IMG/VR virus record: IMGVR_UViG_2802429220_000002
Span: 1 to 29,010 of that record
Source of the DNA: a virus
Taxonomy: Duplodnaviria; Heunggongvirae; Uroviricota; Caudoviricetes
Length of the DNA: 29,010 bases
Direction: 5' to 3' (one strand)
In this document: piece by piece, positions 4,588-8,631 of the stretch
How positions within the stretch are numbered: the first letter of the stretch is position 1
Layout of the letters: every line of letters starts with the position of its first letter
Notes under the pieces: model-generated
Seen by the model: the letters and a program-made list of their open reading frames with translations, nothing else
What the model was told of the DNA's origin: nothing
Databases searched by the model: none
Translations under genes and position numbers: made by a program

Positions 4588-4959
4588 ATGCGTATAGAGT
4601 TTGTTTTGCCTTACCCGCCGACGGTGAACACCTACTGGCGACGTCATGGCAGCACATATTTTGTATCAAAAGCCGGTGAGCGTTATCGCCGTGATGTGGC
4701 GCTCATTGTTCGCCAGCAGCGGTTGAAATTAAACCTCTCCGGAAGGCTGGCGATAAAGATTATTGCAGAGCCACCGGATAAGCGCCGTCGTGACCTGGAC
4801 AATATCCTGAAAGCACTGCTGGATGCGCTGACACATGCGGGGCTGCTTATAGACGACGACCAGTTTGATGAAATCAATATTGTGCATGGTCTGCCTGTTT
4901 GCGGTGGGCGACTGGGTGTGAATATATTCGTAATAAGAGGATGTAATGATGTTGCGTGA
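4588..4959 (+). CDS. rusA: RusA-family Holliday junction resolvase
   Basis: N-terminal [12 protein letters not shown] and catalytic-region [16 protein letters not shown]...LIDDD match RusA signatures; ~120 aa; typical position upstream of Q. Confidence 0.85.
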
Positions 4960-5320
4960 TATTCAGCTGGTTATGGAGCGGTGGGGAGCATGGGCAGCAA
5001 ATAATCATGAAGATGTAACATGGTCCTCGATAGCTGCTGGTTTTAAAGGATTAATCCCGACTAAAGTGAAATCACGTCCTCAGTGTTCTGATGATGACGC
5101 CATGATAATTTGTGGCTGTATGGCACGATTAAACAAGAATAATCAGTATTTGCACGATTTGTTGGTGGATTATTACGTAGGTGGAATGACATTTATGGCT
5201 CTTGCACGTAAGCATAGATGTTCTGATGGGCTTATTGGTAAAAGACTTTATAAAGCTGAAGGTATTATTGAAGGAATGCTTATGGCTCTGAATGTCCGGT
5301 TAGATATGGATATGCGGTAG
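4946..5320 (+). CDS. late-gene antitermination protein Q (small Q family)
   Basis: 124 aa with a WGAWAA motif and Cys cluster, directly after rusA and before the late/lysis region, as expected for Q in lambdoid genomes. Confidence 0.65.
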
Positions 5321-5413
5321 GGATATATAGTGACGAGGGTTATGTTTTCTGTGTTTATAATTAATATGTTTATTTTTTGATGGTCATGAATTTTATGGAA
5401 GGTAAACAAAATG

Positions 5414-5442
5414 TTGCCAAGTGAATTGAAAATATTGATAAT
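5414..5442 (+). promoter_or_regulatory. putative sigma70 promoter of the CPBP/Abi moron
   Basis: TTGCCA, 17-nt spacer, GATAAT, about 30 nt upstream of the RBS AAGGAG and ATG 5474. The late promoter/qut region is probably in 5321..5410 (possible TGACGA ... TATAAT at 5331..5361, weak). Confidence 0.45.
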
Positions 5443-5473
5443 CAATCATCATCATTAAATAAAAGGAGTGTTT

Positions 5474-6292
5474 ATGTGGATTGTGTTAGCACTGTCACTG
5501 TCAACTCTCAGTTGGCATAAGGTAGTGGCTTTTTCATTGTTGACGGTGTCTGTTGTCCTGGCTGTGCTTAATGATATTATTGATTGGCCGGTGTTGTTTT
5601 TTGTTGCTACAATCGTTTTTTTTATTATTTTGAAGTTCAACTGGAAATATAACGCCTGGGCTAAATCCATATATGAAGCTGGCATAGTTTTATCAGCCAT
5701 AGCATTATCTTTCCATTTATGGCCAGGGTTTCACAATCCTGTAGTGCTAAAGTCTGTCACTATCGGACCTCAAAGCACTCCCTATACAATGTATTTTAAT
5801 TTTGATAAAGCGCTGGTGCCATTTTTGTTAGTCCTGTGTACAGCTTCTTTGTTTAAAAAAGAAGTGAAATCAGAAGTGTCTTTGTGGAAATGGGGGGCTA
5901 TGTTGCTCTCTGTTCCTCTTATACTGTTTTTGGCTGTTTTTTTTGGTGGGTTAAAGCCAGAGATTCATTTCCCAGAGTGGTTGCCAGAGTTTATATTGGC
6001 TAATTTGTTTTTTGTGTCTCTGGCAGAGGAGTCATTATTTAGAGGGTATATTCAATCACGGCTATCAGAAGTGACGTCTCCATTGGTTGCGTTAATTGTG
6101 GCGTCTTTGTTGTTTGGTTTTTATCACTATTCAGGTGGTGCTTTACTTGTATTATTTGCCACGTTATCTGGTGTTGTGTATGGATTGTCATGGATGTGGA
6201 GTGGGCGCTTGTGGGTGGCAACCCTTTTCCATTTTGGTCTGAATCTGTGTCACTTGTTATTCTTTACCTATCCATTCTTAAAACATAATTGA
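5474..6292 (+). CDS. CPBP-family intramembrane metalloprotease (CAAX protease / Abi-domain protein)
   Basis: Polytopic membrane protein with the three CPBP motifs: EExxxR (LAEESLFRGY), FxxxH (FGFYHY), HxxxN (HFGLNL). The gene is visibly AT/T-rich relative to flanking phage genes. The ORF track starts at GTG 5468; ATG 5474 has better RBS spacing. Confidence 0.8.
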   Translation: MWIVLALSLSTLSWHKVVAFSLLTVSVVLAVLNDIIDWPVLFFVATIVFFIILKFNWKYNAWAKSIYEAGIVLSAIALSFHLWPGFHNPVVLKSVTIGPQSTPYTMYFNFDKALVPFLLVLCTASLFKKEVKSEVSLWKWGAMLLSVPLILFLAVFFGGLKPEIHFPEWLPEFILANLFFVSLAEESLFRGYIQSRLSEVTSPLVALIVASLLFGFYHYSGGALLVLFATLSGVVYGLSWMWSGRLWVATLFHFGLNLCHLLFFTYPFLKHN

Positions 6293-6433
6293 TTTTTTTC
6301 TATGGCTTTAAATTTATAACACAGAAAAATAGCAGTATGTGACATTTGCATGAAAAATATGCACGGCAAAGCATTTACGTACGTAAAAAATCATGTATGC
6401 TTTTAAGAGTGGTTATTTCACCGCATAGCCTGA

Positions 6434-6456
6434 ACCCGCCTCTGAGCGGGTTTTTT
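6434..6456 (+). terminator. Rho-independent terminator downstream of the CPBP gene
   Basis: acccgc-ctctga-gcgggt hairpin followed by tttttt. Confidence 0.55.
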
Positions 6457-6579
6457 GTGCCCGCAAAGTAGCGCAGTGCGTTAAATGTGCTGGTAGTTAT
6501 TAATACTGGTCTTTCTGCTTGCTGGCTTTTTAGACAAGAGTTATTGGTATGTTACGTTAACCAGAAAAGGGAAAAAGAC

Positions 6580-6777
6580 ATGCTAAAACAGCAGGATATG
6601 ACCGAAACCGCCAGAGTGGTGTTTAATGAATTAAGCGTCACCGAACCGGCGACCGTCGGGGAGATTGCGCAGAATACTTACCTTTCACGCGAGCGCTGCC
6701 AGTTAATACTGACTCAGCTTGTTATGGCGGGTCTGGCAGATTATCAGTTCGGTTGTTACAGACGCCTTCCGCAGTGA
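6580..6777 (+). CDS. hypothetical small protein, possible winged-helix DNA-binding
   Basis: 65 aa from ATG 6580 with a purine-rich stretch upstream; TVGEIAQNTYLSRERCQLILTQLVMAGL looks like an HTH recognition segment. Weak assignment. Confidence 0.35.
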   Translation: MLKQQDMTETARVVFNELSVTEPATVGEIAQNTYLSRERCQLILTQLVMAGLADYQFGCYRRLPQ

Positions 6778-6927
6778 AGGCTTTTTAATTTGTGGTAATG
6801 GGCGGCTGGTGGGTGTTAGCGGCACCTGCCAGCCATCTGCTCATGCGTTGGGGTCACAAGCAAACCTCAGGCCCATCTGCTTTGCGCAAAAGCGGTATGA
6901 GCCTATCAGAGAAGTGCTTATTGATCT

Positions 6928-7477
6928 ATGGCTAATACTGTAAAAATATCCAGCTTCGAGTTAATCAACGCTGATTTCCTAGAATTTATCCAGACCTTAC
7001 CGGAAAACTCTGTCGATCTGATAGTCACAGACCCGCCATACTTTAAAGTGAAGCCCGAGGGCTGGGATAACCAGTGGAAGGGCGACGATGATTACCTGAA
7101 ATGGCTGGATCAGTGTCTGGCGCAGTTCTGGTGGGTATTAAAACCCGCCGGAAGTCTTTACCTGTTCTGTGGTCATCGCCTGGCATCTGATATCGAAATC
7201 ATGATGCGTGAGCGCTTTAATGTGCTGAACCACATTATCTGGGCGAAGCCGTCCGGGCGCTGGAACGGGTGCAACAAGGAAAGCCTGCGGGCGTATTTCC
7301 CGGCAACAGAGCGCATTCTGTTTGCGTCCGGGAGATTTGGTTGCCGACTTTTTCATGGGGTCAGGCTCCATAATAAAAGCAGCGCTGGCACTTGGGGGCA
7401 TGGCGTTAAGCGTTGAACTTGAGTCTGAACGTTTTGAGCATACTGCGGGTGAAATAGTTACGTTGGCAGATAATTAA
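6928..7477 (+). pseudogene. DNA N6-adenine/N4-cytosine methyltransferase, interrupted by a frameshift near 7330 (or a sequencing error)
   Basis: N-terminal part (6928..7416) carries the catalytic DPPY motif (LIVTDPPYF). The AdoMet-binding motif (DLVADFFMGSGSIIKAALALG) is encoded in a different frame (7334..7477). Neither frame alone gives a complete enzyme. Confidence 0.75.
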
Positions 7478-7591
7478 ATCACTGCACAATAAGCTAATGA
7501 ATTGATGTTAACTTCCCGTATTATTGGGCTACTTCGAGAGAAAGGTGCATTACATTTCAGATGTATTTCATCTCACATCCGAGGAAGCAAT

Positions 7592-7667
<76 letters not shown>

Positions 7668-7670
7668 TAT

Positions 7671-7745
<75 letters not shown>

Positions 7746-7877
7746 ACATTTGATAGAGGCGTATTGCAGCACTGGCGTATTTTTATTACGTGAGGACAGA
7801 TTGTTTTTTTAGGAACTCTCAGTTTTCGGGCTATGTTTTGAGGCCAGGTTAGCCTCAGTGCTGATTTTTTACAATAC

Positions 7878-7946
7878 CGGAATGGTGCATTATTGGTTGG
7901 GCTACGTAGTGAGCCCTATGGCAGGTACCGGTAATGCACCATTCCG
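7878..7946. repeat. 15-bp perfect inverted repeat (cggaatggtgcatta / taatgcaccattccg) with a 39-nt structured loop
   Basis: Arms at 7878..7892 and 7932..7946 are exact reverse complements. The loop holds a further hairpin (gggct...agccc). The ggtgcatta core also occurs at 7546..7554 upstream of the tRNAs. Confidence 0.6.
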
Positions 7947-8025
7947 ATGTTGTAAACATCACTTAGAGTAAGTTATAGAACAATTTGCTACTAAGTAAAA
8001 CCTGAAACCTGGGAATACATCTTTA

Positions 8026-8050
8026 CCGCCACACCTGGCGGTTTTTTTTT
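8026..8050 (+). terminator. Rho-independent terminator closing the methylase/tRNA unit
   Basis: ccgcca-cacc-tggcgg hairpin followed by nine T. Confidence 0.6.
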
Positions 8051-8148
8051 ATTCTGTTTTTTCATGGCTCGCTACGGCGGCCTTTTTCATGTATACCCTG
8101 GCGGTTATTATGATGGCTTGTTTATTTGTTCATAAGAGGATTGATACA

Positions 8149-8631
8149 GTGGTCACTTATGCTGATATCAGGGCAAAACGGGCCGAAATACTGAAAGCTA
8201 AGCAGGAATACATTCAGCGGTTGCGGGATACAGCCACAAGGCTGGTCAATGCCTATGAGTCTTCACTGGCGTTGCCGGAACTGCAATGGCGAGACATTGA
8301 GGGTGAGTTACATCCTTACGTCTATATTTGCCTCAATGGCTTCAGTGTCCGACCGGAGGATTTGCAGGTAGACCTTAGGGACGGAGTTGCGTTTAATTTA
8401 TACACGGTTGTTGATGACAATCCCCGCCAGTCTGCAAGTGTGGAAGTTGGTGTAAAGATTGTGCTGCTTGATGGCGATAACCTGACGATTTCAGTTAATG
8501 GTTATGGGGACAGAACATTTTCGCACGTAGATACCGATGCAAAAATTAACGAGGTATGCGAGTTCATCAAAGACAGTATTTTAATGTCGATGAATGATGT
8601 GAATTTGGCAAAGCATCTCTGCCGAAGATAG
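8149..8631 (+). CDS. uncharacterised cargo protein (~160 aa)
   Basis: Longest ORF is 8089..8631, but AAGAGGA sits 7 nt before in-frame GTG 8149, and a promoter-like TTTTCA-16-TATTAT (8084..8111) overlaps the 8089 ATG, so 8149 is the more likely start. Soluble, acidic, no motif I recognise. Confidence 0.5.
   Translation: MVTYADIRAKRAEILKAKQEYIQRLRDTATRLVNAYESSLALPELQWRDIEGELHPYVYICLNGFSVRPEDLQVDLRDGVAFNLYTVVDDNPRQSASVEVGVKIVLLDGDNLTISVNGYGDRTFSHVDTDAKINEVCEFIKDSILMSMNDVNLAKHLCRR

Follow-up and report, generated by a model that had tools for sequence, protein, structure and literature searches.

How does a gene for a membrane protein of the CPBP family come to lie directly behind the antiterminator gene of a lambdoid prophage, and under whose control does it stand there? 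The question is raised by a 29,010-nucleotide (nt) stretch of viral DNA, IMG/VR record IMGVR_UViG_2802429220_000002 (hereafter the window), which is an E. coli lambdoid prophage. In it, the antiterminator gene Q (82/933W/QuuD type; 4946-5320) is followed by an open reading frame (ORF) for a 272-amino acid (aa) CPBP (Rce1-like) polytopic membrane protein (5474-6292). The initial annotation took this ORF for a self-contained moron, in which a CPBP/Abi gene has a promoter and a terminator to itself, is probably expressed in the lysogen and is a candidate for a role in abortive infection or bacteriocin immunity. The comparisons below lead to a different view, which we consider probable, namely that the CPBP gene is one cargo gene lodged inside the late-gene switch of the prophage, between Q and its cognate late promoter, PR'. 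Q, the CPBP gene and the signals described below all lie on the plus strand; the palindrome discussed next is assigned to neither strand.

The evidence begins downstream of the gene. The block at 6374-6459 is, judged by homology, the late promoter PR' of an 82/933W-type Q together with its leader hairpin. It opens, 81 bases past the CPBP stop codon (6292), with a 14-bp perfect palindrome, TTTACGTACGTAAA (6374-6387), which is invariant and contains a -35 hexamer, TTTACG (6374-6379). The -10 hexamer TATGCT (6396-6401) lies 16 nt after TTTACG, with a predicted start near 6408, and a conserved box, TAAGAGTGGTTA (6404-6415), spans the predicted start and the initial transcribed region. At about +25 to +50 follows a leader hairpin of the intrinsic-terminator type (6432-6459; stem 6432-6439/6446-6453, T-run to 6456). 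The 58-nt stretch with this hairpin folds at -20.4 kcal/mol (z = -3.1); a consensus scanner did not call it. The same arrangement recurs in every lineage: a TAT..T hexamer exactly 16 nt after TTTACG, then a box resembling TAAGAGTGGTTA, then a hairpin with a T-run. The palindrome has one match in the window, against 0.03 expected by chance, and it is found exactly in all 47 of the CPBP loci linked to Q and in none of the 83 CPBP loci that lack an upstream Q.

The block also occurs where there is no CPBP gene: in the K-12 prophage DLP12, in phage ev207, in Shiga toxin (Stx) phages and at loci with an ORF6N gene, the palindrome being a one-step variant, TTTACGATCGTAAA, in the last two. In phage records the organism breakdown of the element is that of the Q-protein matches (Stx2a-converting phages 123, Stx1a-converting phages 47, Enterobacteria 23). 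What identifies the block as PR' is a distance. In an Stx1 phage, 258 nt separate the start predicted by the homologous promoter, 7 nt after the -10 hexamer, from the end of the tR' T-run, and the same 258 nt separate the PR' start mapped by differential RNA sequencing (dRNA-seq) from the tR' 3' end mapped by Term-seq in Stx1 and Stx2a phages (PMC7547250). Within the block, we infer that the palindrome is a candidate Q-binding element and that the box, which is kept in the CPBP-slot, porin-slot, ORF6N-slot and Stx-phage versions, is a candidate pause or qut determinant. Searched for in the literature, the palindrome sequence gave no match, and a search on the late promoter of DLP12 yielded nothing useful. 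Just upstream of the palindrome stands an AT-rich inverted repeat, TGCAT-N7-ATGCA (6348-6364), which is kept in the lineage of at least 84% identity and is absent from loci L005 and L007 and from DLP12.

The distance between Q and this block varies among phages, and the gap between them is a slot with alternative cargoes: it is empty in some phages and in others is filled by a porin, ORF6N or CPBP gene. In the Stx1 phage, the block overlaps the Q stop codon, so that the slot is empty and Q and PR' abut. In ev207 and DLP12, a convergent porin gene separates the block from a QuuD-type Q (85% aa identity between the proteins of ev207 and the window), and some 120-135 nt lie between the block and the holin gene (S/essD) downstream of it. 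In two further loci, L002 and L003, the element, in its TTTACGATCGTAAA form, follows an ORF6N gene (5389-6290 and 5383-6370, respectively). That ORF6N gene has a promoter-like site of its own upstream, and a hairpin with a T-run stands directly after Q; a TTGACC-17-CTATAT site together with this hairpin was considered as PR' of L002/L003 and rejected, the PR' element there being the one that follows the ORF6N gene. In the window the slot is bordered on the left by Q (Pfam PF06530, E = 3e-51) and on the right by the palindrome, where homology between lineages starts. The CPBP gene is thus inserted, as a moron would be, between elements that are adjacent in related phages, and its original description as a cargo gene placed right after Q agrees with the empty gap of the Stx1 phage.

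The frequencies of the parts are consistent with such a slot. Of 5426 complete E. coli genomes, 3651 have the PR' element and 572 the CPBP gene, the latter as part of a 1.14-kb region mostly at 95-99% identity. Linkage between the Q allele and the CPBP gene is almost perfect (571 vs 572 E. coli genomes), and it persists in diverged modules in which the CPBP proteins are only 59-63% identical and the Q proteins 79-81% identical. Since Q needs to be passed on with its target site, any cargo between the two would be passed on as well, which would account for the near-perfect linkage of Q, CPBP gene and palindrome. One module of this kind, 85-88% identical to that of the window, is found in locus L004 (E. 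coli RM8082; 4996-8350) directly upstream of the stx1d A/B genes, which would put the late promoter of that Stx1d phage about 1 kb downstream of Q; its PR' leader hairpin is degenerate. In L005, of the 63% lineage, a segment homologous to the StxS small-RNA region, with a terminator, follows PR' (7090-7250). The window lacks a StxS-like segment (6460-6580), and its PR' leader runs almost straight into a 65-aa ORF.

An arrangement of another sort is seen in L137, a lambda-Q-type phage, where a CPBP gene of 55% identity is placed after PR'-tR' and immediately ahead of a holin gene. The CPBP family therefore keeps to the interval between Q and the lysis genes and not to a fixed side of PR'. This suggests that the protein might act in lytic development, produced along with Q or as the first of the late genes, and might process or regulate a membrane protein for lysis timing, DNA ejection or virion release. 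The phage-borne copies are indeed always in the Q-to-lysis interval, they form one clade under purifying selection, and in the window no terminator separates the CPBP gene from Q. The interval is, however, a general hotspot for cargo, including porin, ORF6N and stx genes; the holins of the window lie about 3 kb and many genes away from the CPBP gene; and the chromosomal homologs have no phage context. We regard a lytic role as unlikely.

If the CPBP gene is cargo between Q and PR', its expression must be sought in the DNA upstream. The Q-CPBP spacer (5321-5473) has a guanine-plus-cytosine (GC) content of 0.26 and no terminator-like hairpin, and no terminator was found within it; transcription through Q should therefore continue into the CPBP gene. 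The spacer also contains a candidate sigma-70 promoter, TTGCCA-17-GATAAT (5414-5442), which matches the consensus at 10 of 12 positions, and a Shine-Dalgarno sequence, AAGGAG (5463-5468), read 5 nt ahead of the ATG. Across 16 spacer variants of the lineage of at least 84% identity, the -10 hexamer and the 17-nt spacing are invariant and the -35 hexamer varies (TTGCCA, TTGCCT, TTGTCA). The site is absent as such in L005 and L007, and the spacer is not conserved in the 59-63% lineages. About 9% of random sequences of equal length (153 nt) and composition would contain a site of this quality by chance. The near-consensus site noted at first is thus present in the window and its close relatives but not in the distant lineages, and its match to the consensus could be fortuitous; expression of the CPBP gene from it in the lysogen is plausible.

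The same site admits a second interpretation. TTGCCA-17-GATAAT could itself be PR', in which case the CPBP gene would be a PR'-tR' leader made constitutively in lysogens and the hairpin at 6432-6459 would be tR'. The site is the best consensus match in the region, it is followed by CATCAT repeats resembling a -10 hexamer, and it lies about 95 nt after the Q stop codon. The PR' of phage lambda is similarly located about 95 nt after the stop codon of its Q. However, the diverged Q-CPBP modules have not kept the site, despite the similarity of their Q proteins, whereas the element downstream of the CPBP gene is invariant, tracks the Q family even without a CPBP gene and matches the mapped PR' of Stx phages. 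We therefore rejected 5414-5442 as PR', an assignment that is highly improbable.

With PR' placed at 6374-6459, the hairpin credited to the CPBP gene as its own terminator changes owner. Between the CPBP stop codon (6292) and the palindrome (6374) no terminator was found, and the sole hairpin past the gene is that of the PR' block, which has homologues next to no CPBP gene in DLP12, in the Stx1 phage and in L002/L003, and whose block is shared by ev207. The claim of a terminator belonging to the gene is thereby withdrawn; the hairpin would nevertheless stop CPBP transcripts as well.

These elements can be assembled into a scheme in which both the routes of expression and the biological role of the gene are inferred. 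The late-gene switch would consist of Q (4946-5320) and PR', the latter comprising the palindrome with the -35 hexamer, the -10 hexamer, the start near 6408 and the leader hairpin. The CPBP cargo would have come with about 150 bp of its own upstream DNA and would stand outside the Q-dependent late operon. It could be transcribed by two routes, from the sigma-70-like site, plausibly in the lysogen, and, once the prophage is induced, by read-through from Q. Without modification by Q, transcripts would stop at the PR' leader hairpin, and the lysis genes would so be shielded from transcription of the cargo.

Several points weigh against this scheme. It is co-occurrence that points to Q binding at the palindrome, and the PR' start near 6408 and transcription of the window locus are themselves predictions. 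The upstream promoter is a consensus match only, with the chance expectation and the lack of conservation in the 59-63% lineages given above. The leader hairpin is weak or degenerate in L004, L005 and L007; PR' transcripts of Stx phages pass the homologous hairpin and end 258 nt downstream (PMC7547250), and the window is without the second terminator that is present in Stx phages. The hairpin may thus terminate inefficiently. In L137 the CPBP gene is the first late gene, downstream of PR'-tR', and a role in the lytic cycle is possible to that extent. Finally, several characterized CPBP proteins act without proteolysis, a point that bears on the product and is taken up below.

Base composition was part of the argument for a foreign gene. 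The CPBP gene has a GC content of 0.39, a T content of 0.40 and a GC content at third codon positions (GC3) of 0.39, whereas the window as a whole has a GC content of 0.51 and neighboring genes have GC3 values of 0.5-0.66, including those for the holins, which are also membrane proteins. Q, however, is equally AT-rich (GC 0.41, GC3 0.35), and the low-GC tract, from about 4950 to 6560, extends beyond the CPBP gene and includes Q. The contrast in composition that had been noted with the flanking genes is therefore correct for the window average and for the genes downstream, but not for Q. The phage copies of the gene have a GC content of 0.36-0.41 in every lineage, even beside neighbors of normal composition; in L137 the gene is a clear island (GC 0.41 vs 0.55 and 0.53).

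The predicted product of the cargo gene is an inner-membrane protein of the Rce1/CPBP family of glutamic intramembrane proteases, with every catalytic residue intact. The same frame is annotated in RefSeq (WP_000265262.1) in a locus 99.5% identical. The protein matches the Rce1-like family PF02517 with 71.4 bits (cutoff 22.4; E = 7.9e-20) over profile positions 3-92 of 93, and the gene is matched over its full length by PHROG 13291, whose function is listed as unknown. The three motifs on which the family assignment was originally based are present as E185-E186-x3-R190, F214-x3-H218 and H253-x3-N257; across 63 family members, E185, E186, R190, F214, H218 and H253 are invariant and N257 is nearly so. 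An AlphaFold model (predicted local distance difference test, pLDDT, 95.9) consists almost entirely of long helices and has the fold common to solved CPBP members. The motifs fall within model helices 170-200, 203-217 and 246-263, which coincide with hydrophobic segments in the hydropathy profile, as their proposed location in the membrane requires; the positive-inside rule suggests an orientation for the protein in the membrane.

Beyond the family level, relatives are distant. No named CPBP subfamily of NCBIfam scored above its cutoff, with only myxosortase-type matches below threshold, and a sequence-profile search of the PDB gave no match. In a viral fold library the matches were limited to distant CAAX-like proteins from giant viruses, gp60 of Bacillus phage G and two entries without a name. 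The solved PF02517 members, Rce1 (4CAD) and SpdC/LyrA (6U0O), are only 14-18% identical to the CPBP protein, which differs from them in a family-specific N-terminal half, conserved PGFHN and MY(F/Y)NFDKA motifs and a small beta-hairpin.

Is the protein an active protease? Characterized CPBP members include proteases, partner-binding regulators and an acyltransferase component, and SpdC, Abx1, SpbR and ComM are reported to act as non-proteolytic partner binders. The phage protein could likewise sit in the membrane as a scaffold or regulator and bind a host protein, for instance an envelope enzyme, a kinase or signal peptidase. The pattern found, however, is that expected of an active enzyme: the catalytic residues are conserved among the 63 members, and the ratio of nonsynonymous to synonymous substitution rates (dN/dS) is 0.12-0.30 among phage lineages, which indicates purifying selection, with dS saturated between lineages. 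A proteolytically active enzyme is favored because every catalytic residue is conserved and the gene is under purifying selection, and we consider the non-proteolytic alternative doubtful.

Where did the gene come from? It was seen only in prophages and IMG/VR contigs; searches of 50,697 sequenced phage genomes with its DNA and protein sequences gave no match. Perhaps the prophages that carry it are seldom recovered as free phage, or are in many cases defective. Many O157:H7 and O111 strains are among the E. coli carriers, in whose genomes the gene is annotated as a "CPBP family intramembrane glutamic endopeptidase". Homologs about 50% identical are found in 215 species representatives across Enterobacterales and are usually chromosomal. 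About 35 of 83 loci show the synteny modE-modF-CPBP-gpmA-aroG-pnuC-nadA. In a neighbor-joining tree the phage-borne copies form one clade. The gene thus appears to have been captured from a chromosomal gene family of Enterobacterales, of which no chromosomal copy turned up in E. coli in the genomes searched. The homologs are otherwise restricted to Enterobacterales; copies about 50% identical in three Helicobacter sp. assemblies (L060, L078 and L097) could reflect horizontal transfer or contamination.

The function first proposed for the gene, in abortive infection or bacteriocin immunity, finds no support in these data. PADLOC assigned the CPBP protein to no defense family at E <= 0.01, and no peptide or toxin gene was found in the cargo (5321-6373) or among its neighbors in the window. 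The conserved neighbors of the chromosomal homologs show housekeeping synteny only, with no toxin, bacteriocin or defense partner. A literature search on the CPBP gene in O157 or prophage contexts yielded nothing specific. Historically, the family came by its "abortive infection" label through mis-annotation, and bacteriocin loci account for fewer than 1% of its members, although some CPBP proteins do confer bacteriocin immunity (PMC3578759, and work cited there). The self-contained moron is not without support: gene, promoter-like site and hairpin are all present, the composition is foreign, and the adjacency of Q and PR' in Stx phages makes the gene a true insertion. Against it stand the hairpin, which is part of a block conserved in phages that lack the gene, the shared low GC of Q, and the want of a defense match or of a toxin or bacteriocin partner. 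Taken as a whole that reading is improbable, but it is partly supported: the gene is an inserted cargo and may have its own promoter, while the terminator was wrongly ascribed and the function overstated.

What, then, might a cargo gene between Q and PR' do? A role in lysogenic conversion of the envelope, for example as a shield against a peptide that inserts into the membrane or against a component of an incoming phage, is our leading, though tentative, suggestion. A fuller proposal combines a cargo site protected by linkage, an insulating terminator and an active, envelope-altering protease made in the lysogen, which may perhaps modulate late-gene or Shiga toxin expression; we think this combination unlikely as it stands. 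Were it true, cargo between Q and PR' could not be recombined away without breaking late-gene control, and a CPBP protease carried by about 10% of E. coli genomes (including O157:H7 and the Stx1d phage) would alter the envelope of the lysogen, with the effect, for instance, that superinfecting phages are excluded or a membrane-targeting peptide is inactivated. Transcription across PR' could then also modulate the expression of late genes and Shiga toxin.

The surroundings of the switch are those of a lambdoid prophage. The gene order is hok/sok, DUF968, RusA, Q, the CPBP ORF, the 65-aa ORF, a truncated methylase, two tRNAs, TerB, holins, endolysin, terminase, an HK97-type head and a contractile tail. 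The hok/sok type I toxin-antitoxin locus (2753-2928; Rfam RF01794, 116 bits) has its hok gene annotated as frameshifted in a near-identical strain. The conserved 65-aa ORF (6580-6777; PHROG 331, with a weak match to TrmB-like winged-helix proteins) is the first ORF after PR' and is frameshifted in O157:H7 strain 2159. The DNA methyltransferase gene (6928-7477) is truncated or disrupted, consisting of a 162-aa N-terminal ORF and a 51-aa fragment, and its equivalent is flagged as incomplete in RefSeq. Two tRNA genes, tRNA-Thr(TGT) and tRNA-Gly(TCC) (7592-7745), lie within the late-region leader; related prophages have tRNA-Ile/Arg/Arg in their place.

Set beside known systems, the locus is of no new kind: its protein family is known, and so is the type of position that it occupies as phage cargo; RefSeq already annotates the gene. 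What is new and useful is the arrangement, with a cargo lodged between Q and its cognate PR'. It puts the late promoter about 1 kb farther from Q than one would at first suppose, which matters for modeling the expression of late genes and toxin, the more so as the CPBP gene is common, has many O157:H7 or O111 carriers and in one Stx1d phage stands directly upstream of stx1d. The slot also provides a simple rule for finding further cargo genes.

The closest counterpart is the PR'/qut/tR' region of 82/933W-type phages, which in Stx phages is the source of the StxS small RNA. All of its elements have homologues in the window: the palindrome with the -35 hexamer, the -10 hexamer at 16 nt, the TAAGAGTGGTTA box and the leader hairpin. 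The two differ in that PR' overlaps the Q stop codon in Stx phages, whereas about 1.05 kb of cargo intervenes in the window; in the center of the palindrome, which is AT in Stx phages and TA in the window; and in the StxS segment of about 200 nt and the second terminator, which Stx phages and L005 possess and the window does not.

The porin cargo of DLP12 and its relatives (nmpC/lc/ompD-like, between quuD and essD) occupies the same slot, beside the same type of Q and the same PR' element. The porin gene runs on the other strand, convergently to Q, and its product is an outer-membrane protein, in contrast to the CPBP gene, which is co-directional with Q and encodes an inner-membrane product. 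Among lambdoid phages, bor and lom are morons. Like these, the CPBP gene is an additional gene, unlike the window average and the genes downstream in composition, that stands between elements adjacent elsewhere and has a promoter-like site of its own. Unlike them, it has no terminator of its own, its left neighbor Q shares its low GC content, and it would borrow for its termination the leader hairpin of the late operon.

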